Assembly (NCBI GenBank): GCA_964535735.1
Contig: CAZHTM010000001.1
Span: forward strand, 89,369 to 153,368
Reading direction: 5' to 3'
Source of the DNA: an uncultured bacterium
GTDB lineage: Bacteria > Fidelibacterota > Marinisomatia > Marinisomatales > J089
DNA length: 64,000 nt
Part shown: in pieces, positions 11,598-28,738 of the stretch
Layout of the letters: each line of letters begins with the position of its first letter
Position numbering within the stretch: position 1 is the stretch's first letter
Made by a program: the position numbers and the translations under genes
The notes under the pieces: generated by a model
What the model saw: only the letters and a program-made list of their open reading frames with translations
Told to the model about the DNA's origin: nothing
Database searches by the model: none

Positions 11598-11679
11598 AGG
11601 TTTAAGCGATTTAGGTGATACATAAAGGTTTTGCCTGTTGAATAATGGAAATTCAACATGAAGATTCTGACCTGGATAA

Positions 11680-12255: not shown

Positions 12256-12341
12256 AAATTAGTCTGAAAAAACGAAAATTTTCGGAAGAAAAATGATTCT
12301 TATATTTAAAATTACGAAAGCAAAAGCTAATAAATCATGAT

Positions 12342-12758
12342 CCCGCAAGATCCCCTAACCTTACCTTGCGGAGGGATGAGATCAATTCAACAGGGTAATA
12401 ATATTTCGAAGAATGGGGTTAGTATCTCAATATCCCGATCAAAAAGAGGCTATGTGGTCACAGGATCGGGAGATCCTGTGAAATAGGGGTAATGTATAGT
12501 CAACGATCCAGCAATGTTACATAACTTTACTGAGAGATGTAATATGGTTGCAGGATTAGGAGATCCTGAGTGACCTAGATGGTATAGTTTGTGTGGTTCT
12601 TAAGGATTTAGTCTGTAAAATCGGATAAGATCATGATTCAGCAAGGTCTCATGACCTTGCTGGGACACCGAAACAGAGGATGAAATTCGTCTATTATTCC
12701 GGGTGTAGGCCTAGTGTCTTAGTTTTCCGTTCTGGGTCGCAGGATCAGGAGATCCTGC
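12342..12758 (+). repeat. REP array, right of RAYT (A4, B2, A5, B3, A6, B4)
   Basis: A4 12342-12374 (degenerate). B2 12459-12480 CACAGGATC-ggga-GATCCTGTG. A5 12509-12532 (diverged). B3 12550-12569. A6 12639-12662 CAGCAAGGTC-tcat-GACCTTGCTG. B4 12739-12758 GCAGGATC-agga-GATCCTGC. Confidence 0.85.
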
Positions 12759-12795
12759 ATGATCAGGTTGAGTGATCAAGGTGATTTGTAGAGGT

Positions 12796-13464: not shown

Positions 13465-15038
13465 GGTTGGTTTGCGGGTGGAATTTGATCGACCAAATAC
13501 TCAGCAACAGCGGTGATTGTGAGACTGGGATTCACGCTCAGATTCACAGGAATAATGGACCCATCCATGACGTAGAGATTGTCATAGCCATGGATTTTTC
13601 CGTTGAAATCAATCACTCCGTTTTCGGGTGTATCGCCCATACAACACCCACCCAGAATATGGGCGGTAGAGGAGGTGTTAAACATTACTTCCGGGAGTAC
13701 GCTTTTAGGCGCGCCATCGATTTTCTCAGCCATTTTCTTGGCATATCGATTGGCCACGGGAATATAACTGGGAATCTTTCGATCTGTGTTCCAATTGGAA
13801 TTCAGACTGGGCATACCCAGTCGCCACCAGCGGGGTTTATATTCAAACTTAAGGTAATTATCAATTTTTTGCATCACCAAGAGAATGGTGGCTCTTTGAG
13901 CCCATCCGAACGGCCATAGAATTTTTAGGAATTCCAGAGGATGTCTCAGGATTGTGAACAGGAAAAGTATTGGTCGTGGAATCATGGGATGTCCGCCCAC
14001 CAACGGCGTAGTGAGCAACGACATTAGGTCCTGCTTCTTTCCATACCGAACAGTTTCGATGTGGGTGTCTGCATCCGGATACACACCGGACGTGATGGTG
14101 ATTCCTTTGGAAAAATCTTCACGGTCATGGCGGGCAACTACCCCCACCAGGGCCTCGCTATTTGTCCGAACTCGATTCCCCAGTTGATCTGAAAGATGGG
14201 GAAGAGAACCGGATTGCTTGCATTGATACAATAATTTAACGGTTCCCATAACACCGCCGGCGAAAATCACGCCTTTCACCAAAAAGGTGCGTCGCGGGTG
14301 ACGCCAGCCTGAGACCCGTGACACGGAAACCAGGTAACCACCTTCGGAGCGGGGGCGAACGTCCGTTACCTGATGATTGGAAATGACTCTGGCGCCTCCC
14401 TGCTCAGCTAAATAGAGATAGTTTTTGTCCAATGTATTCTTGGCATTTTCCCTGCAGCCTACCATACAGCCCCCACATTCCGTGCATCCGGATCGATCAG
14501 GACCTCGGCCGTTGAAAAAAGGATCGGGTGTTACTTCCTTTGGTTTTCCAAAATACACACCCACATCATTGATATGAAATGTATCTCCGGCGCCCTCTTC
14601 CTGAGCAATCTCCCGAAGGATTTCGTCCGCAACGGTCAAATTGCGGGCGGGGGTGGCGCCCAACATCGCTTTGGCACGGGAATAATACGGTTCGATACGC
14701 TGTATCCAATCCGAATGACCCCAGGCGTGGTCGGAAAGAACCGAATCGGGAGGAATTAACAAATTGTTAGCGTAAACCAAACTTCCGCCTCCAACGCCTG
14801 ATCCATGAAGGATAAAAGTGTCTTTCATTAAAGTCATGACTTGAAAACCATAACAAGCCAAGGGTGGGAACCATAGATATTTGAATATATTCCAATTGGT
14901 TTTGGGGAATTCCCGAGCATAAAAACGACGTCCCCGTTCTACCACCATGACCCGGTAACCTTTTTCGGTTAACCGCAAGGCCGCCACGGATCCTCCGAAA
15001 CCGGAGCCGATGATGAGGTAATCTGCCGAATAAATCAC
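13461..15038 (-). CDS. GMC-family FAD oxidoreductase (cholesterol-oxidase-like)
   Basis: N-terminal FAD fold DYLIIGSGFGGSVAALRLTEKGYRVMVVERG. Internal CGGCMVGC...NAKNTLDKNYL. C-terminal GMC motif HILGGCCMG...NLYVMDGS. Confidence 0.8.
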   Translation of the reverse strand: MIYSADYLIIGSGFGGSVAALRLTEKGYRVMVVERGRRFYAREFPKTNWNIFKYLWFPPLACYGFQVMTLMKDTFILHGSGVGGGSLVYANNLLIPPDSVLSDHAWGHSDWIQRIEPYYSRAKAMLGATPARNLTVADEILREIAQEEGAGDTFHINDVGVYFGKPKEVTPDPFFNGRGPDRSGCTECGGCMVGCRENAKNTLDKNYLYLAEQGGARVISNHQVTDVRPRSEGGYLVSVSRVSGWRHPRRTFLVKGVIFAGGVMGTVKLLYQCKQSGSLPHLSDQLGNRVRTNSEALVGVVARHDREDFSKGITITSGVYPDADTHIETVRYGKKQDLMSLLTTPLVGGHPMIPRPILFLFTILRHPLEFLKILWPFGWAQRATILLVMQKIDNYLKFEYKPRWWRLGMPSLNSNWNTDRKIPSYIPVANRYAKKMAEKIDGAPKSVLPEVMFNTSSTAHILGGCCMGDTPENGVIDFNGKIHGYDNLYVMDGSIIPVNLSVNPSLTITAVAEYLVDQIPPANQP

Positions 15039-15084
15039 TCTTAAATCTAAGACTGCGATGGAATTGAGGTTAGAAAGAATTTGT

Positions 15085-15113
15085 GTCGAACGCTAATAAT
15101 TAGTAGTTTCGAC
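15085..15113. promoter_or_regulatory. imperfect palindrome in divergent promoter; candidate TetR operator
   Basis: GTCGAAcgCTAATAATTAGtagtTTCGAC. The outer arms GTCGAA/TTCGAC enclose the inner palindrome CTAATAATTAG, 30 bp upstream of the TetR ATG. Confidence 0.35.
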
Positions 15114-15144
15114 CACCCGGTTGAAATTAGAACGAACGGTTGAT

Positions 15145-15753
15145 ATGACTCTAACTGATAGAAAACTCCGCGAAAAACAGCACCGTATCCAAACTATTTT
15201 GGAAGCGGCCAAGCGCTTGTTTGCCCAAAAAGGGTATCAAGAAACAAGTATGAATGATATTGCCGAGGAAGCAGAACTGGGCAAAGCTACCTTGTATTAC
15301 TATTTTAAATCAAAAGATGATATTTATAGGGAAATTTATTTATCCTACTCACGGACCTATTATGAGTCCATTACTCAGGAAATCCAAAATACATCGACCT
15401 TGGAATCGTTGATTGATGCGATTTTGGTGGGACATGGGAAACAAGGGCAGATGGATCGGGATTTTTTAAGTCTATTGTATCCCATCGGTCGGAACGCACC
15501 GGTTTTTATCTTTAGTGAGCCGGAGGTATTGGCGGTAACCGAAGCCCTAAGAGAACCCATTCGCTTACACATTGAAACGGTGTTTCAACAGGCTGGAATC
15601 CGGACTTCATCGGATATATTTCAAAAAGTGATGTGGAGTTTTATGACCGGTATTGCAGTGAAAATGATCCGCGGCCATGAATGGAAGGACTTGGAACCGG
15701 AAATCCGATTTTTCAAAACCAGTATCATAAACCAATTATTAAAGGAAGTCTGA
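15145..15753 (+). CDS. TetR/AcrR family transcriptional regulator
   Basis: N-terminal HTH ...AKRLFAQKGYQETSMNDIAEEAELGKATLYYYFKSK. ATG 15145 is preferred over the TTG at 15121 given by the ORF track. Confidence 0.85.
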   Translation: MTLTDRKLREKQHRIQTILEAAKRLFAQKGYQETSMNDIAEEAELGKATLYYYFKSKDDIYREIYLSYSRTYYESITQEIQNTSTLESLIDAILVGHGKQGQMDRDFLSLLYPIGRNAPVFIFSEPEVLAVTEALREPIRLHIETVFQQAGIRTSSDIFQKVMWSFMTGIAVKMIRGHEWKDLEPEIRFFKTSIINQLLKEV

Positions 15754-15754
15754 T

Positions 15755-18127
15755 ATGACTTTGACCCGATTTGTTTTAAAACGTCCCGTATTAATCGTGG
15801 GAATTGTTGGTCTGGTTACAGTGCTGTTTTTGCTTCAGATGAAGCATCTCACAATGGATCCGGATATCACCAGCGCCTTACCGAAAAAAATCCCGGCCAA
15901 ACGACTTTATGATCGCATGACGGAGATCTTTCCCACCAAGGAATTTATTTTTCTTGGCATTCAAGGAACGGACATTTTTTCCCCGCAACATTTGCAAGAT
16001 GTTTGGACGTTAACCCAATCGCTGGAACAAGAACCGGAAATTTACAAGGTGATGTCGCCGATGAATGTGAGCATTATTCGGGGAACCGAAGAGGGAATGA
16101 TTGTGGAAGACATTCTGGACGCGCCACCGAAATCAGCTCAGGATATCCAGCGATTTAAAAGTCGACTATTCAACAGTGATTTGGCGTTAGGCAATCTCAT
16201 TTCTCGGGATTCCACAATGTTTGGTATGATGCTGCTGTTAAAGAACACTACGGATGTGGATGACTTTGTTGAGCACTTTATACCCAAGGTGAAAGACTGG
16301 GATAATCAGATGGATCTGAACTTAATCCTGGCAGGAAAACCGGTCGTGAGTCATTATGTTGGTTTAGGAATGCAGCGGGATATGTCCACCTTTTTTATGG
16401 GTGGATTAGGCGTGATCTTTGTGTTATTGCTCATTATTTTCAAAAATCTTAGAGGAATTCTTTTACCCTTGAGTGTGGTTATCCTTTCGGTTATTTGGAC
16501 CATGGGAACCATGGCAATTTTGGGCGTGCCCATGTCGCACTCCACAGAAATCCTGCCCATATTAATTATGGCCATCGCGGTCGCGGATAGTATTCATATC
16601 GTGACCCATTATTATGGCAATGCCCGGAAAATTAAGGATAAGATTGAGCTCACCCGGGCGACCATGGCGGATATGATTTCTCCAGTGATCATGACGTCTT
16701 TGACGACCATGGCGGGATTCTTAGCCTTGGGTACAACCGGCGTCGAATCAATCATGACGCTGGGAATCTTTACATCAGTGGGCGTATTGTATGCCCTCCT
16801 GATCAGTCTCACATTCGTTCCAGCCTGGCTTCGTCTTTTGCCTATTCCGAAACGACTCCAGGCACAGAAAGATGCATCTACAACAGCGCGATTGATGATA
16901 AACTGGGGAAGGGTGTTAAACCAGAATAAACGAGTATTAATTCCGTTTATGATCGTGGTTCTGCTACTGAGTACCTGGGGCTTCAGTCGTCTGAAACATT
17001 CGTTCAGTTCTATCGGGAATTTCCCAGAAGATCACCCAGTCCGAATTGCTCATCAATTAATCAACGACCATTTTGCCGGCACCAATGCTTTTCAGGTCAT
17101 GGTGGAGGGGAAAGAACCGGGCCAAATCAAAGACCCACGGATTTTACGGGATATGGACGGTTTAAAATCGCTTGCCTTACGTCAACCCCATGTAGGATCG
17201 GTTCAATCCCTGGCGGACTTTATCAAACGTATTAACAAAGTACTCCATGAGGATGAGGAGGCATATAATGTCATTCCTAACGATCAGGAAGTGGTGAGCT
17301 ATACGGATTATATTGAGCAGGACGGGGGATGGACAGAGGTGATGGTTCAGGACACCATTCCAGGAAAAGAACTGGTTGCCCAATATCTCACGTTGTATGA
17401 AATGTCGGGGAAACCGGATGACATGGCCAATTTGGTGGACTATAAATACCAGCATGCCAAACTTACTATCCTCATGGATTCTGATGATCAAGCCACGCTA
17501 CGAACCATTGACCGGGTTTTGGATGGTTATATCGACACCCATTTCTCCGATGCGGATGTGGCCGTGACTGGGATGGCGAAGTTGATTTTGGTAGTGGATA
17601 ATTTGATTGTTTCCGGTCAGATCACCAGCATTCTTGTATCCCTATTCCTGGTCTGGTTATTGACCTCATTTATGTTTAAGTCGCCCATAGTGGGATTATT
17701 CAATGCGGTGCCTCTGTTCTTTTCCATTTTGTTAAACTTTATGATTATGGGACTTTCAGGGATTAGGGTTAACCTTGAAACGATGGTTACATCCAGTATT
17801 GCTATTGGAGTTGGAGTCGATTATGCCATTCATTTTATTTATCGATATCGGTTGAAACTGGAGCAGTCCGGTTCCTATGAACAGGCCGTGGTTGATACGA
17901 TGGAAGATTCGGGACTGGCTATTGCGTTTAACAGTTTTGTGGTGGCTGCTGGGTTTGCCGTCATTGCATTATCCCAATTTGTGGCCATCATGGAGATGGG
18001 TGTCCTCATCACCTTAACGATGGCGACTTCGGCCTTTGGTGCGTTGACGGTTTTACCGTTGGTTTTCGTGAATTACCAACCAAAAGCGCTGAAATTGAAA
18101 TCTTCCCAATCAAAGGAAACCAAGTAA
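15755..18127 (+). CDS. MMPL/RND-superfamily exporter (COG1033-type, two 6-TM halves)
   Basis: 790 aa with duplicated TM bundles, each preceded by a large periplasmic loop. Conserved AVADSIH and GVGVDYAIHF motifs. Starts 2 nt after the TetR stop. Confidence 0.85.
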   Translation: MTLTRFVLKRPVLIVGIVGLVTVLFLLQMKHLTMDPDITSALPKKIPAKRLYDRMTEIFPTKEFIFLGIQGTDIFSPQHLQDVWTLTQSLEQEPEIYKVMSPMNVSIIRGTEEGMIVEDILDAPPKSAQDIQRFKSRLFNSDLALGNLISRDSTMFGMMLLLKNTTDVDDFVEHFIPKVKDWDNQMDLNLILAGKPVVSHYVGLGMQRDMSTFFMGGLGVIFVLLLIIFKNLRGILLPLSVVILSVIWTMGTMAILGVPMSHSTEILPILIMAIAVADSIHIVTHYYGNARKIKDKIELTRATMADMISPVIMTSLTTMAGFLALGTTGVESIMTLGIFTSVGVLYALLISLTFVPAWLRLLPIPKRLQAQKDASTTARLMINWGRVLNQNKRVLIPFMIVVLLLSTWGFSRLKHSFSSIGNFPEDHPVRIAHQLINDHFAGTNAFQVMVEGKEPGQIKDPRILRDMDGLKSLALRQPHVGSVQSLADFIKRINKVLHEDEEAYNVIPNDQEVVSYTDYIEQDGGWTEVMVQDTIPGKELVAQYLTLYEMSGKPDDMANLVDYKYQHAKLTILMDSDDQATLRTIDRVLDGYIDTHFSDADVAVTGMAKLILVVDNLIVSGQITSILVSLFLVWLLTSFMFKSPIVGLFNAVPLFFSILLNFMIMGLSGIRVNLETMVTSSIAIGVGVDYAIHFIYRYRLKLEQSGSYEQAVVDTMEDSGLAIAFNSFVVAAGFAVIALSQFVAIMEMGVLITLTMATSAFGALTVLPLVFVNYQPKALKLKSSQSKETK

Positions 18128-18897
18128 TGCGATTCTTCACTGTGATTCTGGCTTTGTCCGGACTAATGATGGCTCAGGATTTAACGGGCTACGACATTAT
18201 GTATCGGGCGCTCAATAAAAAATCCTGGCAGGATATGAAAGCCGACCTTACCCTGACCATGGTGAATGCCCGTGGCGAGGAACGGGTGCGGCAGATCGCT
18301 TTTTATTCCTCGGATAACGCTCAGGGATTAAACCGGATGCTGATGCGATTTATGGCTCCTGCTGATGTGCGCGGGACAGGATTTCTCACCCTGGAAACCT
18401 CCTCCGGCGATGATGAGCGATATCTCTACCTTCCGGCGTTACGCCGGGTCAAAAAAATTGCCGCCAGTGGGAGCGGCGGAAACTTTATGTCCAGTGATTT
18501 TACGTATTATGATATCGGTAAACCAAAATTGGAGGATTGGACGTACACCCTGTTAGGAGAGGAAAAGGTTCAAGGCAAAACGTGCTATAAAATTGAGTGT
18601 CTTCCCATTGATAAACAGGTTTTGAATGATACCGGATATGGAAAAATTATTCGCTGGGTAGAAAAAGAACGTTTAAATACTGTTCAAAGCATCTATTATG
18701 ATAAAAGTCTCGAAGAGTGGAAGCATCTGACGGTCAATCAAACGTTGGAAATTAAAGACATCGATTTTGCTACAGATATGGTGATGGAGGATATTCAAAT
18801 CCAACATCGCAGTCAAATGGTGTTCTCTAACGTGGACGTTGACACCAATATTCCCGACACTTTTTTCAGTATCCGGTATTTGCAACGGGGTCGTTAG
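18127..18897 (+). CDS. outer-membrane lipoprotein-sorting (LolA-like) periplasmic protein
   Basis: Signal peptide plus text typical of the LolA-like partner of COG1033 exporters (YLYLPALRRVKKIAASG...FMSSDFTYYD). TAATG overlap with the exporter gene. Confidence 0.7.
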   Translation: MRFFTVILALSGLMMAQDLTGYDIMYRALNKKSWQDMKADLTLTMVNARGEERVRQIAFYSSDNAQGLNRMLMRFMAPADVRGTGFLTLETSSGDDERYLYLPALRRVKKIAASGSGGNFMSSDFTYYDIGKPKLEDWTYTLLGEEKVQGKTCYKIECLPIDKQVLNDTGYGKIIRWVEKERLNTVQSIYYDKSLEEWKHLTVNQTLEIKDIDFATDMVMEDIQIQHRSQMVFSNVDVDTNIPDTFFSIRYLQRGR

Positions 18898-20138
18898 TGA
18901 AATGGTGGCGTAAAACCGTTGGGCTCATTGTCCTGACCGTCATGGTGTCTGGTCAGTCCTCTTTTGGGGGATACATGAAGGGCTTGGGTTACTATAATCC
19001 TCATTCCGCGTCCTTTGCACGGTTAGGTACCCGATTCCAGGCCCGATGGAGCAATGATAATGGTCGTTCAGGATATTTTGCCGCCTTGAATTTCGAATCT
19101 GATTTTGCTACGATTGCGCAGGATTCTGCAAACCGGAGCCTGTCGACGCCTGATATGCACATAACGCCCGTGGAATTTTATATGGATTATCATTTCTCAT
19201 CGGCTGATTTACGAGTGGGGCAGCAATTCATTTTTTGGGGCGCCACTGATTGGGTGAATCCCACCGATGTTATCAATCCCTGGGATTTTGAGAATCTTTC
19301 CAGTGAAACGGAAGACTATCGAATTCCGGTCCTGGCCGGTTCTCTGATGATGTATTTGGGAAATTATACAATTCAGGCTGTCCTGGTGCCGGCGTTTACC
19401 GCCACAGTAATTCCCATACCACAAGGGACGCATTTGTACCGACCTCCGGTGGACAAAGATCATCTTCAGGGAGGAATCCGGATTCAGAGTTTCGTGGGTG
19501 CCACCGATGTATCGTTCGCCTATTTTTCTGGATTTAATCATTTACCGACATTCCGGTTTACGGGGATGGATTTTTCAACCGGTACGCCGTTCCCAACCTT
19601 TAAGGCCACTTATTCTCGTCAACAGATGGTGGGCGTGGACTTTGTGCGCACGGTAAATCAATTTGCCCTGAAAGGAGAATCCGCATGGCTCATTACACCC
19701 GATAAAAATGGGACCGATATTTTTGAGGACAACGCTTCGGTTGAAACCGTGTTGGGGATGGATTACATCGCGTCGGAAAATTTCAGCCTTAATTTCCAAT
19801 ATATTAACCATACCCTTCTAAAATATTCGCAATCGGAAGAACAAGACCGAATCGATCAAGCCGGTATGACCGGACATTTGATCCCTCCTGAGAAAATGAC
19901 TCATTCCTTCAGTGGCAGACTGGCCTGGGATCCATTTCCCTACATTACCAGTCAGGTAATCGGTGTGTATCATTTGAAAGACCGGGATTCCTTCCTGCTG
20001 GGTTTCTTATCATGGCAACCGCGGGACGCCGTCTCGGTGACGGTTGGGACGGTAATTTTTTCGGGATCGGAATCATCGGAATACGGCCGTCTTGATAATG
20101 AAGATTTGATATTTCTGGAAATTAAACAGTCCTTTTAA
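18897..20138 (+). CDS. probable outer-membrane beta-barrel protein (DUF1302-like partner)
   Basis: GTG start overlapping the upstream stop. Signal peptide, alternating beta-strand pattern, C-terminal ...LEIKQSF (terminal aromatic residue). Confidence 0.5.
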   Translation: MKWWRKTVGLIVLTVMVSGQSSFGGYMKGLGYYNPHSASFARLGTRFQARWSNDNGRSGYFAALNFESDFATIAQDSANRSLSTPDMHITPVEFYMDYHFSSADLRVGQQFIFWGATDWVNPTDVINPWDFENLSSETEDYRIPVLAGSLMMYLGNYTIQAVLVPAFTATVIPIPQGTHLYRPPVDKDHLQGGIRIQSFVGATDVSFAYFSGFNHLPTFRFTGMDFSTGTPFPTFKATYSRQQMVGVDFVRTVNQFALKGESAWLITPDKNGTDIFEDNASVETVLGMDYIASENFSLNFQYINHTLLKYSQSEEQDRIDQAGMTGHLIPPEKMTHSFSGRLAWDPFPYITSQVIGVYHLKDRDSFLLGFLSWQPRDAVSVTVGTVIFSGSESSEYGRLDNEDLIFLEIKQSF

Positions 20139-20218
20139 GTCCATGAAAAGGGCGTTAATTTTCCTGTGGAGTGGGGCAGATAAGTCCCACCTATTTTCTT
20201 TACAAAGGTTGTGAATAC

Positions 20219-21088
20219 ATGAAGGTAGTGCATCGAATTTTAATCATTATTATGGCTCTAGTTGTCGCCGGAGCGATCGTTTGGTCACTGGATAATGCCG
20301 GGAGTTATTATCTGGCTTCAAGTTTGGAACGGCCTCACATGGAGGCGCATAAACTATGGAAACCGGGTGGGCTCTATGGTCACGGGTTAGGCATTATCGG
20401 ATCTTTGATGATCATGCTATTACTCACATACTCAGCACGAAAGCGAATTCGTCGATTTCGGCGCTGGGGTAGGCTGCCAAACTGGTTAAACTATCACATC
20501 TTTTTAGGTATTTCAGGACCATTACTGATTACCCTTCACACATCCTTCAAATTTGGCGGTTTGGTTTCTATTTCTTATTGGTCGATGATGGCGGTGATGC
20601 TGAGCGGGTTTATCGGGCGATATATTTACGTGAAAATTCCCCGGAAAATAAACGGTGAGGAAATGACCCGAAAAGAATTTGAAGCTCATAATGAAGAATT
20701 AAAGGCTCAGTTGGTACAACAATTTCAATTGTCCGCGAATCAGTTAGCCTTGGTTGAGAAAATCGGTGGGGTGGATAAAATAAAGGAACGTGGTCTCCTG
20801 GGAATATTCACTTTTTTCATTATGGATTTATTTAATTGGATTACTCTTAGACGAATTAGCCATCTTGTTTTTAAATCCGCTTCTGTTCCGAAAAAACAGC
20901 GAAAAGAATTTCATCGTTTATTAAGTCAGCGGGTCAAGAGTTCTCGACGGATTGCCTTTCTCCAGGCCGCACAAAAATTATTCCACTATTGGCATGTTAT
21001 TCATAAACCCTTTGCCTATACAATGATTGTGATCATGATTATTCACGTGGCAATGGCCATTACGCTTGGGTATACGTGGATTTTTTAA
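20219..21088 (+). CDS. integral membrane protein, predicted di-haem b (ferric-reductase/NOX-like transmembrane electron carrier)
   Basis: Two TM helices each carry an H-x13-H pair: YHIFLGISGPLLITLH (His codons 20495 and 20537) and IHKPFAYTMIVIMIIH (21002 and 21044). ATG 20219 is preferred over 20171. Confidence 0.5.
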   Translation: MKVVHRILIIIMALVVAGAIVWSLDNAGSYYLASSLERPHMEAHKLWKPGGLYGHGLGIIGSLMIMLLLTYSARKRIRRFRRWGRLPNWLNYHIFLGISGPLLITLHTSFKFGGLVSISYWSMMAVMLSGFIGRYIYVKIPRKINGEEMTRKEFEAHNEELKAQLVQQFQLSANQLALVEKIGGVDKIKERGLLGIFTFFIMDLFNWITLRRISHLVFKSASVPKKQRKEFHRLLSQRVKSSRRIAFLQAAQKLFHYWHVIHKPFAYTMIVIMIIHVAMAITLGYTWIF

Positions 21089-21089
21089 C

Positions 21090-22403
21090 ATGACCATGGA
21101 CAGTATCATCACCTACGGCATCGGTCTGATTATTATTTTGATATTTTTAGTTCCCTACATAATAAGCATGCGAAAAAATGAAAGACGCACGAGGGAACGG
21201 TTGGCGGAGAGTCAATCCAAAGGACAGGCAAAGCCGCTTCTGCAGCATCCCATTATCAATCAATCGGTGTGTATCGGCTGTGGGATTTGCGTCACCAGTT
21301 GCCCGGAAGGGGACGTCCTGGGTTTGATTAATGGAAAAGCCACCATTATTCATGGGAGTCATTGTGTCGGTCATGGACTTTGTGCGGAGAATTGTCCCAT
21401 CGGGGCGATCGAGGTTGGATTGGGCGACATTAGCGAACGTGAAGATATTCCCCGTCTTACAGATCAATTCGAAACCAACATTCCTGGAATTTATATCGTA
21501 GGTGAATTAAGTGGCATGGCATTGATCCGCAATGCCATAACCCACGGAGTGACAGCCATGAATGCCATCGCTGAATCGCTAAACGGGGCACCGGGTTTGG
21601 ATACATCCGTAGCGATTATTGGCGCCGGACCTTCCGGTCTGTCCGCTGCTTTAAAAGCCAAAGAATTGGGCATTGATTTTCAAATTCTAGATCAAGATAA
21701 ACCTGGAGGGACGATCCTACAATATCCCCGGAAAAAACTGACCTTGGTCCAGCGAGTGACCATACCCCTCTATGGTGATTTAACCCGCGGGGAATATACA
21801 AAGGAAGAATTGCTGGATATTTGGGAGTCGATGATTGAAAAGAATGCCATTGATTTGAAGACGGGACACAAACTGCTGGGTGTGGAACGAAATGATACCG
21901 GTTTTAAGATAAAAACATCCAAAGGGGAGTTGACCGCGGAGAAAGTGATCTTAGCCCTGGGACGGCGGGGTACACCGCGGAAATTGAATGTCCCTGGTGA
22001 AGATTTGGGCAAAGTGATGTATAAACTCATGGATGCGGAAACCTATAAGAACAATCACATTCTTGTAGTGGGAGGCGGCGATAGCGCCATCGAGGCAGCA
22101 ATTGGATTGGCCAGCCAAGCCGGGAACACGGTAACCATCTCGTATCGAAAAGAGCATTTCTTTCGTCTCAAAGCGCGAAATGAAAAAAATATTGAGCTCT
22201 TCATGAATGAGAAGAAATTGGATGTTATCTTCTCCTCGAATGTGAAGGAGATTACTCCGGATTCAGTCAGTGTAGCCATCGGCGAAGAGGTCAAAACGAT
22301 ACCCAATGATTACGTCTTTATTTTTGCAGGTGGTGAATTACCCTTCCCCTTATTGGATTCCATCGGGATTGATTTTGGCAAAAAAATCCGTGCGAAAGTG
22401 TGA
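21090..22403 (+). CDS. membrane-anchored 2x[4Fe-4S] ferredoxin-domain NAD(P)/FAD-dependent oxidoreductase
   Basis: N-terminal TM helix followed by RKNERRTRER. CIGCGICVTSCP and CVGHGLCAENCP. Rossmann motifs IIGAGPSGLSAA and VVGGGDSAIEAA. Starts 1 nt after the upstream stop. Confidence 0.75.
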   Translation: MTMDSIITYGIGLIIILIFLVPYIISMRKNERRTRERLAESQSKGQAKPLLQHPIINQSVCIGCGICVTSCPEGDVLGLINGKATIIHGSHCVGHGLCAENCPIGAIEVGLGDISEREDIPRLTDQFETNIPGIYIVGELSGMALIRNAITHGVTAMNAIAESLNGAPGLDTSVAIIGAGPSGLSAALKAKELGIDFQILDQDKPGGTILQYPRKKLTLVQRVTIPLYGDLTRGEYTKEELLDIWESMIEKNAIDLKTGHKLLGVERNDTGFKIKTSKGELTAEKVILALGRRGTPRKLNVPGEDLGKVMYKLMDAETYKNNHILVVGGGDSAIEAAIGLASQAGNTVTISYRKEHFFRLKARNEKNIELFMNEKKLDVIFSSNVKEITPDSVSVAIGEEVKTIPNDYVFIFAGGELPFPLLDSIGIDFGKKIRAKV

Positions 22404-22404
22404 G

Positions 22405-23817
22405 ATGATGAAAAAAACTCTGTTTTTCTGTCTCTGTTTATTCGTTCCCTGGCAAGTCTTTGGCCAGTTTAGTCCCGGTAAATTATCCCGGTATCATGCG
22501 GAGTTGGAGGGTACATCCAATTGTATTCAATGCCATGATATAGGGAAGAAGGAAGTCTCGGATGGTTGTCAAAAATGCCATACTCCTTTATTAAAACGGA
22601 TTAAGGAAAAGACAGGATATCATGCGGATAAGGCCGATGGATGTAAAGATTGCCATTCCGACCATAACGGAAGAGAATTTGAATTGGTGTATTGGCCTAA
22701 GAACATTAAAAACTTTAATCACAACGAAACCGGATACACACTTTCAGGGAAACACCGGGATGCGAAATGTCGTGATTGTCACCAGCCAAAATATATTCAG
22801 GATAAGGAATTAATAAAATGGGCGGGTGAACATCCTCAGTTTAATATCATGGATCGAACATTTTTAGGATTGGGGACGGAATGTCTGACCTGCCATGAGG
22901 ATGTGCACAGGGATGAAGTATCCGATGACTGCACAAAATGCCATAATACATTTGATTGGAAAAAAGCCGCCGACGAATTTGATCATAACCAGGCGCGTTT
23001 TCTGTTGACCGGTGCTCACGAAAAAGTGAAGTGTGGGAAATGCCATAAAATCCCTGACAATACAAAAAAAGTATGGCAATTAACAGGGATGGCCTTTGAT
23101 CAGTGCGGGCGGTGTCATGACGATGTACATAAGGGCAGTTTTGGATCAACCTGCGAACGGTGCCACACAACAGTGGATTGGAAAAAGAACCAGAAACGGT
23201 TCGATCACAACAGTACCAAGTATCCTCTAGTGGGAAAACATGTCAACGTAGCATGTCAGGATTGTCACACACCTCAATTGCAAGGAACCTTACCCAAATT
23301 TGATTTGTGTAGTCGCTGCCATGCTGACGAACATGATGGCCAGTTCCTGACACGAGCGGAAGGTGGTGAATGTTCTCAATGCCATACAGTGTATGCCTTT
23401 AAGCCCACGACCTTTACAATGTCCATGCATCAAGCCATTCGCTTTACATTGGAGGGCGCGCATCGTGCTGTACCCTGTATCGCCTGCCACAAACCGTACA
23501 TGAAAAAGGACGGAAATACAACAGTGAGATTTACGTGGACGAATCTCCAGTGCACTACCTGTCATAAAGATGAACACAGGAATCAATTTCAGGCGCATTT
23601 TAATAATTCCTGTGATAAATGTCATACAGTCATAACATTTTCACAGATTAACTTTGATCATCAGGCAACCACTTTTCCCTTGGATGGGAAACATCAAAAC
23701 GTCCCTTGCGAAAAATGTCACTTCAAAGAAACCGATTCAGTAGGAGAGTATATTCGATATTATCCAGTAGCCCATCGCTGTGTGGATTGTCACTCCATCA
23801 CCGATCAAATACAGTAA
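22405..23817 (+). CDS. multihaem c-type cytochrome, 17 CxxCH, built from c7-like trihaem units
   Basis: Signal peptide MMKKTLFFCLCLFVPWQVFG. 17 CxxCH counted in the translation. Repeated unit CxxCH-D-H...CxxCH...W...F-H....L-G-H....CxxCH. The ATG immediately follows the upstream TGA. Confidence 0.9.
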   Translation: MMKKTLFFCLCLFVPWQVFGQFSPGKLSRYHAELEGTSNCIQCHDIGKKEVSDGCQKCHTPLLKRIKEKTGYHADKADGCKDCHSDHNGREFELVYWPKNIKNFNHNETGYTLSGKHRDAKCRDCHQPKYIQDKELIKWAGEHPQFNIMDRTFLGLGTECLTCHEDVHRDEVSDDCTKCHNTFDWKKAADEFDHNQARFLLTGAHEKVKCGKCHKIPDNTKKVWQLTGMAFDQCGRCHDDVHKGSFGSTCERCHTTVDWKKNQKRFDHNSTKYPLVGKHVNVACQDCHTPQLQGTLPKFDLCSRCHADEHDGQFLTRAEGGECSQCHTVYAFKPTTFTMSMHQAIRFTLEGAHRAVPCIACHKPYMKKDGNTTVRFTWTNLQCTTCHKDEHRNQFQAHFNNSCDKCHTVITFSQINFDHQATTFPLDGKHQNVPCEKCHFKETDSVGEYIRYYPVAHRCVDCHSITDQIQ

Positions 23818-23833
23818 GGGATCAAAACCGACC

Positions 23834-26374
23834 GTGAACCGATATTTCATCCGGATTCTCGGAGTTCTCTCCCTGGGGATAATATTGTCTGTTGCGCTTG
23901 GACAACAATCCGCCATCGAAGTGAGTGGGTATGATTGTGGTGATTGTCATGGGGCTACCGGTTGGGATATCCTTGAATTCTCAGGTTTTTCCCACCAAAG
24001 CACAGGATTTCTATTAGAAGGCGCTCACGCGGCCCAACCATGTTATGCCTGCCATACGGGAAATACTTTGAGTGAGAAGCATCAATTTCAAGACGTGAAT
24101 ACAGTCTGTTCTTCCTGCCATCTGGATATCCACCAATCCACGTTGGGAGAGGATTGTACTTTTTGTCATGAATTCACCAGTTGGCAAGTAACCCAGAAGA
24201 CCTTTAACCACGAAACCACCCGGTTTCCTTTACAAGGCGCCCATCGGGGAATCGCCTGTGATCAATGCCATACGGAACATCCCATGACGCGCTTTGATTT
24301 TGTGGACACGGATTGTTTTGCCTGTCATCAAACAGATTATAATCGGGCGTTGAATCCTTCACATGTTTTGGCTCGTTTTAACCGGGATTGTCGGATCTGC
24401 CACACCGATCATCGGGCTGGGTGGCGGCCTTCCTTGTTTGATCATGCCGATACCGATTTTCTACTGACCGGAGTGCACATTGTTACGGAATGCGCTGAAT
24501 GTCATATAAATGGCCAATTTGAAGACACTCCTGAGTCCTGTCAGGCGGCCAATTGCCACTTCAACGATTTCCAAACCACCGATTCACCCAACCACATGAT
24601 CTATGGATATCCGGAGCAATATTGTGAAGAATGTCATGTAACCTTAGGATGGACGCCTTCTATTTACACGCATACCATTGATTATGCGTGCAGTTCTTGT
24701 CATATCCCCGATTTTCAGAATGCGCTTAATCCGATCCATAACGTTGAAAATGGATTTAGCACCAATTGTGAAGGATGTCATGTCGACGTAGAATCGTGGG
24801 CCGGGGCAACCTTCGATCATAGCAACGTTGAAATAGGTTCATGCGCCTCCTGCCATTTATCGAATTATAACGCCACCACCAGCCCTAACCATTCTGCTGC
24901 TGGATTTTCTACAAATTGTACATTATGTCATCAATCTACGTCCGATTGGCAACAGGTTCTTTTCGACCATGATCCTGCAATCACTATTCCGTGTTCGGAC
25001 TGCCATATGTCGGATTATAACGAGACCGCATCCAATCCTTCCATACCAAATCATGTGGATTCCGGTTTTTCCACCGATTGTACTCAGTGTCACACATCCA
25101 CATCTGATTGGGCTCAAATAAACTTCGACCATACGTCGGTGAGCATACCCTGCGCGGACTGTCATATGCCCGATTACAATAATTTACCTAACGCTACCTA
25201 TCCTAATGCGCCGAATCACGCTGAACTGGGTTTAACCACCGATTGTACGATCTGCCACAATTCCACGTCCGATTGGACCGACGTTACCTTCAGTCATACT
25301 TCGGTGGACAACCTTCCTTGCGCCGACTGTCATTTGAATCAGTATAATAATACCACTGATCCTGATCATGGCGCTTCCGGGTTTACCACCGACTGTACCC
25401 AGTGCCATACGTCAACATCGGATTGGACACAAGTGAACTTTGATCATAATCTGGTGACCGTTCCTTGCGCCGATTGCCACATGCCGGACTACAATAACAC
25501 CGCCAATTCGTCCAATCCCGATGTTCCCAATCATGTGGATTCAGGATTTACTACTGATTGCACACAATGCCATGTGTCCACATCGGACTGGTCGCAGGTT
25601 GATTTTAACCATGCCACGGTGACCGCGCCTTGCGCCGACTGTCACATGCCCGATTACAATAATTTACCGAACGCTACCTATCCCGACGCCCCGAATCATG
25701 CTGATTTAGGACTATCCACCGATTGTACGATCTGCCACAATTCCACGACTGACTGGACGGATGTTACTTTCACCCATACTTCAGTATCCGATATCCCTTG
25801 TGCTGATTGTCATTTAAATCAATATAACAACACAACCGACCCTAATCATTCCGCTTCCGGATTTTCCACGGATTGTACGCTTTGTCATAATTCCACATCC
25901 GACTGGTTAGATGTCACGTTTGATCATAGCAATATTTCACAACCCTGTGCTGATTGCCATTTGGAAGATTATAATTCAGCTATAAATCCGAATCACATTT
26001 CTCAGCAATACCCCACGACCTGTGAAGATTGTCACACAACTACTTCCTGGACTCCGGCCGACTTCGATCATGACACCCAGTATTTTCCCATATATTCTGG
26101 TAAGCATGATAATGAATGGTCCACATGCACAGCAGAATGCCATATCAACCCTTCTGAGTATTCCGTATTCTCCTGTGGATTAAATGGCGTATGCCATGAA
26201 CATGATCGGGCTAGCATGGACGATAAGCACCAGGGTGAGGTTAGTGGATATGTGTACGAAAGCAATGCCTGTTACAATTGTCACCCTGATGGGACAGAAG
26301 AAGGAGGGGATGGCGATGAAGGGGGTGATATCATCCGTGACTGGCGGGACCATATCAAGCGAATTCGGAAATAG
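23834..26374 (+). CDS. giant multihaem c-type cytochrome, 28 canonical CxxCH plus CX4CH and CX3CH variants; paired-CXXCH module array
   Basis: A GTG 23834 start gives signal-like VNRYFIRILGVLSLGIILSVALGQQ (the ORF-track ATG 23780 would overlap the upstream gene). Motifs were counted directly in the translation. Confidence 0.9.
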   Translation: MNRYFIRILGVLSLGIILSVALGQQSAIEVSGYDCGDCHGATGWDILEFSGFSHQSTGFLLEGAHAAQPCYACHTGNTLSEKHQFQDVNTVCSSCHLDIHQSTLGEDCTFCHEFTSWQVTQKTFNHETTRFPLQGAHRGIACDQCHTEHPMTRFDFVDTDCFACHQTDYNRALNPSHVLARFNRDCRICHTDHRAGWRPSLFDHADTDFLLTGVHIVTECAECHINGQFEDTPESCQAANCHFNDFQTTDSPNHMIYGYPEQYCEECHVTLGWTPSIYTHTIDYACSSCHIPDFQNALNPIHNVENGFSTNCEGCHVDVESWAGATFDHSNVEIGSCASCHLSNYNATTSPNHSAAGFSTNCTLCHQSTSDWQQVLFDHDPAITIPCSDCHMSDYNETASNPSIPNHVDSGFSTDCTQCHTSTSDWAQINFDHTSVSIPCADCHMPDYNNLPNATYPNAPNHAELGLTTDCTICHNSTSDWTDVTFSHTSVDNLPCADCHLNQYNNTTDPDHGASGFTTDCTQCHTSTSDWTQVNFDHNLVTVPCADCHMPDYNNTANSSNPDVPNHVDSGFTTDCTQCHVSTSDWSQVDFNHATVTAPCADCHMPDYNNLPNATYPDAPNHADLGLSTDCTICHNSTTDWTDVTFTHTSVSDIPCADCHLNQYNNTTDPNHSASGFSTDCTLCHNSTSDWLDVTFDHSNISQPCADCHLEDYNSAINPNHISQQYPTTCEDCHTTTSWTPADFDHDTQYFPIYSGKHDNEWSTCTAECHINPSEYSVFSCGLNGVCHEHDRASMDDKHQGEVSGYVYESNACYNCHPDGTEEGGDGDEGGDIIRDWRDHIKRIRK
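25151..25945 (+). repeat. in-frame tandem duplication inside the 28-haem gene (480-bp / 160-aa six-haem period)
   Basis: Modules A (25151-25318), B (25319-25465) and C (25466-25630), then A' (25631-25798) and B' (25799-25945). tgcgc.gactgtca.atgcccgattacaataattta recurs exactly 480 bp apart. Confidence 0.85.
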
Positions 26375-26377
26375 AGT

Positions 26378-27196
26378 ATGTCGTATTCAGCGATTATTCT
26401 CATGGTTGTATTGGCTGGAAGTCCTCAATTGGAATTGACCGATATACCTTGTTCTAAATGTCACACTCCCGATGCCTGGATTCCTCTAAATACCAATCGG
26501 ACATTTAATCATTCCAGGGATACACTATTTCCCCTTGAAGGTCGCCATCGTGATGCCGATTGTCTTCAATGCCATCCTGGTGAAACAACGGTAGAAATTC
26601 ATGCATTTGCCAAAGCCCGGCCCGAGTGTACAACCTGCCACATGGATATCCACATGAATCAACTCGGATCGGAATGTGATCGATGCCACACAACAGAAAC
26701 TTGGGACATGAGCCGGTGGACGAATAATCATAGTCATACAATTTTTACATTGGATGGGATGCACGCGTCCCTGGAATGCCGGGACTGTCATGGCATCAAT
26801 TTTGACCGTCTGGCAGGTCAACTAACGACAGATTGTTATATGTGCCATCAGCAAAGTTTTGTGGCTGCGATCAATGCTATCGATCTCGATCATCCTGAAA
26901 ATCAAAATTGCCGCTTATGTCACAATAGTCGTGCCTGGGTTCCTATTGATATGTCGCAGCACGATTCCCTATTTCCCATTTATTCAGGAGCACATAGAGG
27001 AAAGTGGACCACCTGTAAAGCTGAATGCCATATTGATCCGACCAATTACCAATTATTTTCTTGCGGCCTGAACGGTGTATGTCATGAACATGACAAGGAT
27101 AAAATGGACCAAAAGCACCTGGGGGAAGTAAGTAATTATAGTTACAATAGCTCCAGATGTTATGATTGTCATAGCAGCGGTGGAGGAGGCGATTAA
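26378..27196 (+). CDS. octahaem c-type cytochrome (8 CxxCH + CX3CH), periplasmic
   Basis: Signal-like N-terminus. 8 CxxCH counted. The C-terminal ~75 aa are paralogous to the C-terminus of the 28-haem protein. Starts 4 nt after the upstream stop. Confidence 0.9.
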   Translation: MSYSAIILMVVLAGSPQLELTDIPCSKCHTPDAWIPLNTNRTFNHSRDTLFPLEGRHRDADCLQCHPGETTVEIHAFAKARPECTTCHMDIHMNQLGSECDRCHTTETWDMSRWTNNHSHTIFTLDGMHASLECRDCHGINFDRLAGQLTTDCYMCHQQSFVAAINAIDLDHPENQNCRLCHNSRAWVPIDMSQHDSLFPIYSGAHRGKWTTCKAECHIDPTNYQLFSCGLNGVCHEHDKDKMDQKHLGEVSNYSYNSSRCYDCHSSGGGGD

Positions 27197-28738
27197 ATGA
27201 AATTTTTCAGTTTATGTGTAAGTCTACTAATCCTAAGCTCATTGGGTTGGTCTCAGGAACGGGTGGTAATCGACGTGAATGGCAAAATCACCTACTTAAC
27301 TACCGATCAAGTGTATTGCGATGTGGGCACTGAAGTGGGTGTGGAAGAAGGGGATACCCTTCATGTTACTCGGGGAGTCGACGAAATCGGATTGGTAGTG
27401 GTTACGTATATATCCCGAAAGTCCAGTGTTTGCGAGCCCTTGGTTCCTGCTGAGACTTTTCGATTGGGAGACCGGGTCCATCTGAAGAAAGTCAAACTGG
27501 TGACTATAGAAGAGACAACGGTAACACCGGCTCAAGTAAAGGAGGTCTCTCCCGTCAGTAAAAGACTGGGCCTAGCTCATACAGGCAATTTTTCGTTCCG
27601 CTATACCTATGGACAGTTTGCAGATAGTCTGTATAGTCAACGGAGTATCGCCTCTATCCAATACGGAATACACATATCCAATCCCATTGAAACCCAATTT
27701 TGGTTGTATGGGCGTTCCAATATACAGAACCGGGATTTCACACTTTACCAGGCACGGTGGGTTTTGGGGAAAGAGGACAGCCGCTTTAACGGTCAGCTCG
27801 GCAGAGTTTATTCTGCTTCTTTGTCCGGGATTGGAGCTACCGATGGTTTGTTGGTGAATTCGGCGTTATCGGAACGCCTATCAGCTGGTTTTTTAGTGGG
27901 GATGGAACCGGAACCCACCACACTTAAGTTTAATTCCAATGTCAAAAAAGGGGGTATTTTTACCCGGTTTGAGACGAAAGGGGAAAAACGATCTTTTGAG
28001 GGAAGTCTGGCTTTGGTGGGCCAATATGCCAGTGGGAAGGCTGATCGAGAATTCATATACGACCGTCTGCGATATCGAAATGGGCGACGACTGTATTTTA
28101 CCATGAACCAGACTATTGACTTATATCGAAATGGTCCTGTCGGCGGCCGGAAAGGGATTGAACTGGTGTCCAATCAACTATCACTTCGGGTGCGGGTCAC
28201 ATCATTTTTAAGTGTCTATACCCGACTCTCCAACCGGAAACAAATCCTTTACCAGGTTTCAAGTTCTTCGCTCCCGGATTCGCTGTTTGTAGATGAAACT
28301 CGGTCAGGCTGGTACAACGCCATTCGGTGGACGACAAAAGGGGACCGGTCGTTTCTCCTGGGAGCCAATTACCGGTATCAATCAGTAGGTGGTAGTAACT
28401 CAATCTATGCGTTTTTCACCTATCGCGGACCCTATTCCCGCGGGCGATGGAATTTTGATTATACCGGCAGCTACATTCACAATTTGCTGATTACTGGTAC
28501 ACGCAATCAATTCGGCTTCTCCCGGACTATAGGGAAGACGGGAACGTTCTTTACCGAATACGAGCTCTATGTGTATGGATATGGCAATATCATGACAGAT
28601 TATGTTCAACATAATATTACGTCCACCTATTCATGGAGATTGCAGTCCCGGATGGTAATAACCGCATCATTGGATGCGACGATTGATAAGGATTATTATT
28701 TCTATTATTTGTATTTCGGATTTAATTACCGGTTTTAG
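27197..28738 (+). CDS. outer-membrane beta-barrel protein with N-terminal soluble domain (porin-like partner of the cytochromes)
   Basis: The ATG abuts the upstream TAA. Signal peptide MKFFSLCVSLLILSSLGWSQ. Long amphipathic beta-strand pattern rich in Y/G/R/N/S. C-terminus YLYFGFNYRF (OMP-type terminal Phe). Confidence 0.6.
   Translation: MKFFSLCVSLLILSSLGWSQERVVIDVNGKITYLTTDQVYCDVGTEVGVEEGDTLHVTRGVDEIGLVVVTYISRKSSVCEPLVPAETFRLGDRVHLKKVKLVTIEETTVTPAQVKEVSPVSKRLGLAHTGNFSFRYTYGQFADSLYSQRSIASIQYGIHISNPIETQFWLYGRSNIQNRDFTLYQARWVLGKEDSRFNGQLGRVYSASLSGIGATDGLLVNSALSERLSAGFLVGMEPEPTTLKFNSNVKKGGIFTRFETKGEKRSFEGSLALVGQYASGKADREFIYDRLRYRNGRRLYFTMNQTIDLYRNGPVGGRKGIELVSNQLSLRVRVTSFLSVYTRLSNRKQILYQVSSSSLPDSLFVDETRSGWYNAIRWTTKGDRSFLLGANYRYQSVGGSNSIYAFFTYRGPYSRGRWNFDYTGSYIHNLLITGTRNQFGFSRTIGKTGTFFTEYELYVYGYGNIMTDYVQHNITSTYSWRLQSRMVITASLDATIDKDYYFYYLYFGFNYRF

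Follow-up and report, generated by a model that had tools for sequence, protein, structure and literature searches.

A cluster of six abutting, co-directional genes (B to G, positions 20219 to 28738) on the chromosome of an uncultured member of the Marinimicrobia very probably encodes a trans-envelope cytochrome conduit resembling the PCC3 class of porin-cytochrome systems, to which it is likened by its motifs, haem counts and architecture. The cluster lies in a 64,000-nucleotide (64-kb) stretch of GenBank contig CAZHTM010000001.1, here called the window, and its genes were delimited from the listing of open reading frames and inspection of start codons. PCC3 was defined by He, Barco, Emerson and Roden in 2017 (Front Microbiol 8:1584; PMC5566968). 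An earlier reading of the same DNA, made from the letters alone (the sequence-only reading), had announced a seven-gene operon as a candidate for an undescribed arrangement. The number of genes is six, as in the product list of that reading itself, and the five stop/start junctions that it gave are all exact; "undescribed" has to be withdrawn, as He et al. report the same four core parts and the same membrane-protein motifs. The genes are the following.

20219 to 21088, forward strand: gene B, a 289-amino-acid (aa) inner-membrane protein that matches the PCC3-type inner-membrane protein (IMP)
21090 to 22403, forward strand: gene C, a 437-aa protein with a transmembrane (TM) anchor, a ferredoxin domain and a thioredoxin reductase (TrxR)/YpdA-like FAD/NAD(P)-binding domain
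22405 to 23817, forward strand: gene D, 470 aa, with a Sec signal peptide and 17 CxxCH motifs
23834 to 26374, forward strand: gene E, 846 aa, with a GTG start, a signal peptide and 28 CxxCH motifs
26378 to 27196, forward strand: gene F, 272 aa, with 8 CxxCH motifs, a paralogue of E
27197 to 28738, forward strand: gene G, a 513-aa outer-membrane protein with a signal peptide and a modelled 22-strand beta-barrel

Counting the CxxCH motifs of D (17), E (28) and F (8) reproduces the 53 canonical c-haem sites attributed to the cluster by the sequence-only reading. Outside these three proteins a single further CxxCH was found in the window when all stop-to-stop frames of at least 80 aa were considered, and the concentration of the motif in D, E and F is far beyond chance.

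The membrane protein B has five TM helices with its N terminus inside and its C terminus outside; counts of lysine plus arginine put loops 73-88 and 138-252 in the cytoplasm, and the helices of the AlphaFold2 (AF2) model (predicted local distance difference test [pLDDT], 81.5) agree with this charge-based topology. A cytoplasmic helical insert of about 110 residues separates TM4 from TM5. The two H-x13-H helices that had been pointed out earlier are present (H93/H107 and H262/H276), and all four histidines are invariant in an alignment of 21 homologues reaching down to about 40% identity. Seven histidines in total are invariant in this alignment (H55, H93, H107, H256, H259, H262, and H276), together with the columns of three motifs.

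20483 to 20539, forward strand: B TM3 motif W89-x3-H93-x13-H107, invariant columns, identical to the motif of PCC3/PCC4 IMPs
20603 to 20617, forward strand: B TM4 motif S129-G130-x-x-G133, invariant, corresponding to the SGXXG of PCC3/PCC4 IMPs
20990 to 21046, forward strand: B TM5 motif W258-x3-H262-x13-H276, invariant, matching the literature motif

TM3 and TM5 run parallel, both from inside to outside, so that H93/H262 could ligate a haem on the cytoplasmic side and H107/H276 a haem on the periplasmic side, and B is predicted to be a di-haem-b transmembrane electron carrier. The family is large, with 4161 clusters at 50% identity in a profile search at E<=1e-3 and 770 at E<=1e-30. The three additional invariant histidines are located at the periplasmic end of TM2 (H55, 20381 to 20383) and at the cytoplasmic end of TM5 (H256, 20984 to 20986, and H259, 20993 to 20995), and could serve a third cofactor, docking, or the entry of electrons from C.

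The product of gene C begins with a TM helix, after which come the sequence RKNERRTRER, a Fer4 dicluster domain and a Pyr_redox_3/2 domain (Pfam Pyr_redox_3, 4e-46, and Fer4 families). Its bulk is assigned to the cytoplasm because the TM helix precedes this basic cluster, which bears out the orientation that the sequence-only reading had given to the anchor. The protein carries no signal or Tat motif and no CxxC, while FAD and NAD(P) Rossmann motifs are present; all seven of its cysteines are inside the Fer4 domain, and it is therefore without a redox-active disulfide. The best matches in the PDB are YpdA/Bdr (7a7b, 2e-30), then thioredoxin reductases and TrxR-type ferredoxin-NADP reductases, and the score against the NCBIfam model of the YpdA/Bdr bacillithiol-disulfide reductase (TIGR04018) is 161 bits, which does not reach the cut-off of 339.9. 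C also differs from that stand-alone soluble flavoprotein by its TM anchor and ferredoxin domain. C is predicted to be an NAD(P)H dehydrogenase that feeds B. Its iron-sulfur (Fe-S) ligands occur in two successive motifs.

21270 to 21398, forward strand: C Fe-S motifs C61-x2-C-x2-C-x3-CP and C92-x2-H95-x2-C-x3-CP, by direct reading

Two [4Fe-4S] clusters had been assigned to this protein from its sequence. The first motif is indeed the canonical CxxCxxCxxxCP; the second is C-x2-H-x2-C-x3-CP, hence a pair of [4Fe-4S] clusters is not established. This second motif (CxxHxxCxxxCP) is retained in 66 of 67 homologues, and the first is cut to the three-cysteine form C-x5-C-x3-CP in 22 of the 67. An FAD-binding segment of the "GD" type (DQFETNIPGIYIVGELSG; residues 125-142, window positions 21462 to 21515) precedes the first GxGxxG of C, and the matching segment of YpdA sits C-terminally (residues 278-295), which suggests a circular permutation of the flavoprotein domain.

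All three cytochromes have Sec signal peptides and none has a lipobox. D, with 27.6 aa per haem, has homologues with 17, 20 or 23 haems that always follow B or C, and is predicted to be a periplasm-spanning multihaem cytochrome. E, with 30.2 aa per haem, contains tandem repeats rich in Thr, Ser, Asn and Asp, has homologues with 16 to 49 haems, and is the predicted outer or extracellular multihaem cytochrome. Its C terminus is a distinct module.

26069 to 26308, forward strand: E C-terminal triheme-type module of about 77 aa, signature HQGEV..Y.YES.ACYNCHP.G, shared with F

Two of the three haem motifs in this module are atypical (Cx3CH and Cx5CH). In other phyla the same triheme module of about 77 aa is the tandem repeat unit of E, and its last copy keeps the signature H-L/Q-GEV..Y.YES.ACY.CHP.G in all phyla; this copy is a candidate for the barrel-docking end of the protein. 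F equals E without the central repeats, joining the N-terminal seven haems of E to the C-terminal module: its haem spacing [37,22,16,34,19,25,83] reproduces the first six gaps and the last gap of E, and the two proteins align by BLASTP at 3e-34 (N-terminal) and 3e-40 (C-terminal). The bin at 24001 to 26000, which overlaps the repeats of gene E, is the sole 2-kb bin of the window with strongly negative GC skew (-0.155), due to the Cys/His/Thr/Ser-rich tandem repeats and with no strand switch.

For G, the signal peptide, the beta structure and the terminal Phe noted previously are all confirmed, and the AF2 model (pLDDT, 83.6) adds an N-terminal beta domain (22-101), a disordered linker (103-121) and a 22-strand barrel (126-512). 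The top Foldseek matches of the model are the 24-strand usher pores FimD and PapC (E about 6e-9), with TM-scores that are low (up to 0.48). The barrel is thus large by its own strand number and by its best fold matches. G has no family match in Pfam or NCBIfam.

At least 562 species-level genomes contain a relative of B, and the best 80 loci were examined. Thirty-four of these are long loci, defined by at least 9 kb of downstream and at least 1.5 kb of upstream DNA, and B, C, D, E, and G are found together in every one (34/34), so that joint occurrence of the core genes across genomes is complete in this set. F is present in 9 of the 34, mostly from Marinimicrobia. Gene order is shuffled between loci (BCDEFG, CBDEG, BDEGC, and others), and this permutation combined with constant co-occurrence argues for a functional rather than accidental linkage. 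The 34 long loci are spread over Marinimicrobia, KSB1, Calditrichota, Gemmatimonadota, Zixibacteria, Krumholzibacteriia, Ignavibacteria, Cytophagia, and Electryoneota; the best 80 come from these groups and from one metagenome-assembled genome (MAG) of Marinamargulisbacteria. The closest 120 protein-database matches listed are all relatives from the Fibrobacteres-Chlorobi-Bacteroidetes (FCB) group, and several homologues occur on more than 100 marine metagenome contigs, including those of Tara. In six loci of pelagic Marinimicrobia, C and D are separated by an additional gene for an FNR-type protein with NAD_binding_1 (285 aa in locus L007, 12195 to 13052). A tblastn search of plasmids found a complete B-C-D-E-G cluster at 8893 to 21477 of the 100-kb plasmid pEMTOL02 (NC_018749.1) of Emticicia oligotrophica DSM 17448, a cultured aerobic member of the Bacteroidota; ccsA comes first there, followed by B, C, D (23 haems), E (40 haems), G, and a GW-domain protein (cluster proteins WP_015031196-WP_015031200), and the plasmid location indicates that the cluster is mobile. 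The single hit returned by C in the plasmid tblastn search, from Pseudoalteromonas, has an unrelated glycosyltransferase context and was discarded, and the plasmid search with D found no proteobacterial PCC3 comparator.

Weaker tblastn hits of B lead to proteobacterial and Bacteroidota plasmids encoding a shorter B homologue of about 250 aa, whose gene is translationally coupled to an upstream gene for a cytoplasmic flavo-Fe-S protein that binds NAD(P); a gene for a c3-type multihaem cytochrome comes next. The homology is supported (hhalign probability 99.5%, E 4.5e-23; phmmer 6e-17), with both His motifs aligned and SGxxG aligned to SGFxGRY. On the plasmids of Alteromonas, Methylophaga, Legionella, Pontibacter, and Methylocystis the partner has the domains FAD_binding_6, NAD_binding_1 and Fer2 (2Fe-2S) and is of the NOX/FNR type, and in Sphingobium it consists of Pyr_redox, two cNMP domains and Fer4_11. 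Three-gene modules with an FNR-type protein were located in five loci.

Locus L084, 7851 to 12570: three-gene module (FNR-type protein, HX13H protein of about 253 aa, c3-like cytochrome)
Locus L085, 7938 to 11292: the same three-gene module
Locus L086, 3243 to 6714: the same three-gene module
Locus L087, 3164 to 6651: the same three-gene module
Locus L088, 9446 to 12522: the same three-gene module

Proteins of the B family therefore have, in different lineages, cytoplasmic flavo-Fe-S partners of three unrelated kinds, all of them NAD(P)-binding. The simplest way to account for a membrane protein family that is repeatedly paired both with non-homologous dehydrogenases and with multihaem cytochromes is that it carries electrons across the membrane between them, and this replacement of partners favours the interpretation of B and C as a split NOX-like module rather than the quinone-active one of the published model. 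Clusters of "cytochrome + HX13H protein + other redox protein" are already listed, without interpretation, in Supplementary Table 6 of He et al. (PMC5566968). The three-gene modules usually sit beside copper and heavy-metal genes (P-type ATPase, multicopper oxidase, DUF2933, isoprenylcysteine methyltransferase, and RND efflux), and that of Alteromonas sits beside a NiFe hydrogenase island.

In the path that we propose, C would be anchored at the inner face of the cytoplasmic membrane, oxidise NAD(P)H at its TrxR/YpdA-like FAD domain, and hand the electrons on, via two Fe-S clusters of which one would be His-ligated or of the 3Fe type, to the cytoplasm-side haem b of B (H93/H262). Within B the electrons would move through the membrane to the haem b on the periplasmic side (H107/H276), from which the 17-haem D would receive them. 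The outer membrane would be traversed via a cytochrome lodged in the barrel of G, either F and/or the conserved C-terminal module of E, so as to reach the 28-haem E at the surface and then an extracellular acceptor, for instance Fe(III)/Mn(IV) oxides, humics, or a partner cell. Taken as a whole, this export path (NAD(P)H, C, B, D, F or E in G, and E) has slightly better prospects of being right than wrong on the sequence evidence; we infer the cofactor content, the partners, the direction and the acceptor of the conduit.

The NAD(P)+/NAD(P)H couple stands at -0.32 V, and NAD(P)H is able to reduce Fe(III)/Mn(IV) oxides, humics, and electrodes. Outward flow is favoured because NAD(P)H is a low-potential donor and export runs with the inside-negative membrane potential, as in NOX. 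Such a path would bypass the quinone pool, pump no protons and consume membrane potential, and it would therefore fit redox balancing and electron disposal, or reductive mobilisation of metals; a role in classical energy-conserving respiration appears disfavoured. It may be, with a likelihood somewhat below even, that FCB bacteria including the globally abundant pelagic Marinimicrobia (SAR406) possess a quinone-independent wire from NAD(P)H to the cell surface, in which a split NOX-like flavo-Fe-S/di-haem-b module feeds a porin-cytochrome system of more than 50 haems.

Several observations weigh against the path from NAD(P)H through C and B to the surface. The assignment of haem b to B depends on motifs, since the Pfam matches are sub-threshold and the PDB offers no match: among the 21 homologues, 18 weakly hit DUF4405, 13 Ferric_reduct and 7 Ni_hydr_CYTB, all below threshold, the sequence profile of B matched nothing in the PDB, and Foldseek with the B model gave nothing better than E 3.4 and no match to solved transmembrane domains of the NOX, DUOX, STEAP or MsrQ type, in a test that is weak for all-helical membrane models. 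YpdA, the nearest characterised relative of C, is a disulfide reductase and not an electron-transfer dehydrogenase. E has neither a lipobox nor a type IX secretion system (T9SS) domain, and the localisation of D, E, and F is a prediction. Fusions that might have attested contact between B and C or between B and D proved to be frameshifted gene calls (P0269, P0236, and P0270) with out-of-frame sequence in place of TM5. More recent papers continue to describe PCC3 as "functionally unverified," and the proteobacterial PCC3 clusters of Gallionellaceae and Leptothrix are reported to have four genes and no flavoprotein; a PCC3 membrane protein of that kind presumably uses another donor, perhaps quinol. 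The proposal of the sequence-only reading that electrons enter through a split NOX-like module drawing on NAD(P)H accordingly fared unevenly, being strengthened by the non-homologous flavoprotein partners of the B family, while the likeness to NOX itself is at the level of motifs. Fold evidence for a NOX-like B was rejected on the Foldseek and PDB profile outcomes. For the window protein, DUF4405 (PF14358) scores 17.7 bits against a Pfam threshold of 26.7 (best homologue E 2e-6; 18 of 21 at E<=1), which makes B at most a distant relative of DUF4405, and Ferric_reduct (PF01794) gives no match at E<=0.1, its best homologue being at a sub-threshold E of 1.6e-3.

The flavoprotein-free clusters of Gallionellaceae and Leptothrix also speak for a reading along the lines of He et al., in which B is quinone-active and works with the menaquinone pool, and C has an accessory part in regulation, reductive repair or cofactor maintenance. 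A quinone-active cytochrome b is what the published model proposes for this motif class, and Ni_hydr_CYTB, the family weakly matched by 7 of the 21 B homologues, is a quinone-reactive cytochrome b family. We nevertheless consider this reading unlikely: C accompanies the other genes in 34 of 34 long loci in spite of their shuffled order, and the coupling of homologous membrane proteins to three unrelated NAD(P)-binding flavo-Fe-S proteins is hard to square with an accessory role. The same components could alternatively form a metal reductase that conserves no energy and serves assimilation or detoxification (by reductive dissolution of particulate Fe or Mn, or in the handling of Cu or other metals) in the manner of the eukaryotic FRE ferric reductases, with an electron path identical to the one proposed above. 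A path that is driven by NAD(P)H and independent of quinones conserves no energy, as is typical of assimilatory reductases of the FRE/NOX type, and the three-gene relatives occur in copper and heavy-metal islands on plasmids. The window cluster is embedded among housekeeping rather than metal-resistance genes, about 53 c-haems plus b-haems and Fe-S clusters would be a costly means of acquiring iron, and an outer-membrane barrel with a giant surface cytochrome points to insoluble or distant acceptors, all of which renders this function quite unlikely.

Very unlikely in our judgement is a conduit running inward, which would take up electrons from Fe(II), Mn(II), reduced sulfur minerals, a cathode or a partner cell for delivery to cytoplasmic NAD(P)+. 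The potentials of Fe(II)/Fe(III) couples are much higher than that of NAD(P)+/NAD(P)H (-0.32 V), so that only donors of very low potential would suffice, and inward electrons would have to move against the inside-negative membrane potential. It was in Fe(II)-oxidising bacteria that PCC3 was first found, and it has mostly been discussed for them; multihaem wires are reversible in principle. Expression data are divided, one PCC3 inner-membrane component being upregulated in the iron-oxidising Sideroxydans CL21 and the PCC3 genes being downregulated on Fe(II) in S. lithotrophicus ES-1. Most hosts of the cluster studied here belong to FCB lineages that resemble heterotrophs, and Emticicia itself is an aerobic heterotroph, which again suits export better than uptake.

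The surroundings of the cluster in the window are those of an ordinary chromosome. Downstream of G are rplM, rpsI, rpsB, tsf, pyrH, and frr, and the remainder includes ispG, a class II ribonucleotide reductase, aconitase, chemotaxis genes, and a selenocysteine tRNA. On the upstream side the cluster begins after a terminator-like structure.

20171 to 20190, forward strand: terminator-like hairpin, with a T-run to 20200, between the DUF1302 gene (stop 20138) and B, from a pattern scan and the sequence

This hairpin is the 5' boundary of the cluster. The genes before it (15121 to 20138) form a separate cluster on the same strand, encoding a TetR regulator, an MMPL-family transporter, a LolA-like protein, and a DUF1302 outer-membrane protein that also ends in Phe. 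A DUF1302 gene is likewise found upstream of B in the closest relative (locus L002), and with that exception the four genes are not kept beside B in other loci. As candidates for a seventh gene they are ruled out by the hairpin and by the lack of conserved adjacency in other phyla. The selenocysteine tRNA (48330 to 48421; Rfam RF01852, 62.7 bits) implies that the organism makes selenoproteins; its annotated neighbours are TPR/SPOR lipoproteins and a two-component system, with no sel genes among them. A 1259-aa gingipain-like Peptidase_C25 protein with a C-terminal FlgD_ig-type domain is encoded at 36096 to 39875 on the reverse strand, and its make-up suggests a T9SS-type secreted protease, which fits an FCB-group host.

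If the proposed path is correct, the HX13H family (4161 clusters at 50% identity, at least 562 species-level genomes) would consist of transmembrane carriers and not of quinol dehydrogenases, joining cytoplasmic pyridine-nucleotide dehydrogenases to periplasmic or extracellular cytochrome wires, and the function of PCC3/PCC4-type membrane proteins would have to be reassigned. PCC3-type conduits would gain an inner-membrane entry point, and extracellular electron transfer in diderm bacteria would have a new bioenergetic mode. Uncultured lineages that are not usually credited with this capacity (SAR406/Marinimicrobia, KSB1, Zixibacteria, Calditrichota, Gemmatimonadota, and Krumholzibacteriota) would become candidates for it, with a bearing on the redox cycling of Fe, Mn, and humics in oxygen-deficient waters and sediments. 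The complete cluster on the plasmid of the cultured E. oligotrophica DSM 17448 provides a tractable host and makes the idea directly testable.

In NOX and FRE proteins, electrons pass from cytoplasmic NAD(P)H to flavin, then to two stacked bis-His b-haems held by H-x13-H helices, and on to an acceptor at the far side of the membrane. B resembles them in the two His pairs about 13 residues apart on the parallel TM3 and TM5. It differs in having five TM helices rather than six and in the division of the module between two polypeptides; the dehydrogenase of NOX/FRE is FNR-like, whereas C is TrxR/YpdA-like (Pyr_redox_3) with an interposed ferredoxin domain, and the acceptor is O2 or Fe(III) directly in NOX/FRE but a multihaem cytochrome chain here. 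The small polytopic cytochromes b associated with flavinylation (DUF4405, MsrQ, and PepSY-like) share four central histidines with B. They are paired with ApbE-flavinylated extracytosolic proteins, and B with multihaem c cytochromes; the insert of about 110 residues between TM4 and TM5 is a further difference of B. DUF4405, the Pfam family nearest to B, has been shown experimentally to bind haem b and was proposed to carry electrons across the cytoplasmic membrane (Light lab, mSystems 2024, PMC11334425). The plasmid three-gene clusters possess the homologous membrane protein, a cytoplasmic flavo-Fe-S partner and a periplasmic multihaem cytochrome as the window cluster does, but mostly lack the porin and the giant surface cytochrome, and their flavoprotein is from another fold family.

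Geobacter Pcc and Shewanella MtrCAB have in common with the window cluster an outer-membrane barrel with one multihaem cytochrome predicted inside it and another outside; their haem numbers are far below those found here. The Pcc porin OmbB is reported to have 18 to 22 strands and OmaB 8 haems, numbers that F (8 haems) and G (22 strands) recall; no Pcc family model matched, and E is without a lipobox, OmcB being a 12-haem lipoprotein. The DmsE/MtrA model TIGR03508 scores 74.9 bits for E and 31.2 bits for D, under its cut-off of 192.2, and MtrB/PioB porins have 26 to 28 strands as against the 22 of G, which matches neither the MtrB nor the OmbB family. Inner-membrane entry in MtrCAB and the Geobacter systems is through a quinol dehydrogenase (CymA, ImcH, or CbcL). 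None is found at the window cluster, where no NapC/CymA/NrfH-, ImcH- or CbcL-type protein appears at any NCBIfam cut-off, as the sequence-only reading had stated for the operon; nor did the cluster match a characterised respiratory enzyme operon. The "Geobacter-like Pcc" of Ignavibacteria (Shi et al. 2014; Arbour et al. 2020), which in Ignavibacterium album includes a 14-haem protein of 400 aa (Shi et al. 2014), is a different and smaller cluster, and identity with it was rejected. In the open-access literature we found no description of this architecture across the FCB phyla or of an obligatory Fer4/Pyr_redox flavoprotein within it; a search for work on Marinimicrobia/SAR406 with multihaem cytochromes or extracellular electron transfer returned nothing relevant, and the genome papers on carriers or close relatives (Caldithrix abyssi and Ca. 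Electryonea clarkiae) do not mention the cluster.

The closest known system is PCC3 itself, like the present cluster a bioinformatic prediction, which occurs in Sideroxydans lithotrophicus ES-1 (Slit_0867-0870 and Slit_1446-1449), Leptothrix cholodnii SP-6, and many Alpha-, Beta- and Gammaproteobacteria, and comprises a porin, an extracellular cytochrome rich in repeats and Thr/Ser (median 34 haems, range 10 to 63), a periplasmic cytochrome (median 21 haems), and an IMP that is about 300 aa long, crosses the membrane five times and carries SGXXG in TM4 and a W-x3-H-x13-H motif in each of TM3 and TM5 (PMC5566968). B agrees with the IMP in length and helix number, and in SGxxG and both W-x3-H-x13-H motifs residue for residue. 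A barrel gene is present in both systems, with 22 strands in the G model and 22 predicted for the L. cholodnii porin (PMC5566968). The periplasmic cytochrome of PCC3 has about 21 to 27 haems at 26 to 27 aa per haem, and the two L. cholodnii cytochromes have 27 and 30 aa per haem (PMC5566968); D, with 17 haems (17 to 23 in homologues), falls slightly under the published range at a similar 27.6 aa per haem, and E is likewise built of repeats, its 28 haems (16 to 49 in homologues) at 30.2 aa per haem being within the range of 10 to 63. A Chlorobium ferrooxidans (DSM 13031) cluster listed in Supplementary Table 6 of He et al., which combines an 18-haem cytochrome of 471 aa with an HX13H protein and a porin (PMC5566968), is probably of the same type as the one in the window. 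The IMP had already been compared with the FRD/NOX domain and was proposed to be a quinone-active di-haem cytochrome b (PMC5566968); the published model thus has it communicate with quinones, whereas the context in the window points to a cytoplasmic NAD(P)H dehydrogenase. The make-up also departs from the four genes of PCC3 by the presence of C in 34 of 34 long loci, and because C is obligatory we file the cluster as a variant of PCC3 and not as a plain member. Its hosts are phyla of the FCB group, those of PCC3 Proteobacteria, and the Marinimicrobia add the 8-haem F. The core architecture is already known as PCC3; what appears to be new here is its spread across the FCB group and its obligatory flavoprotein partner.

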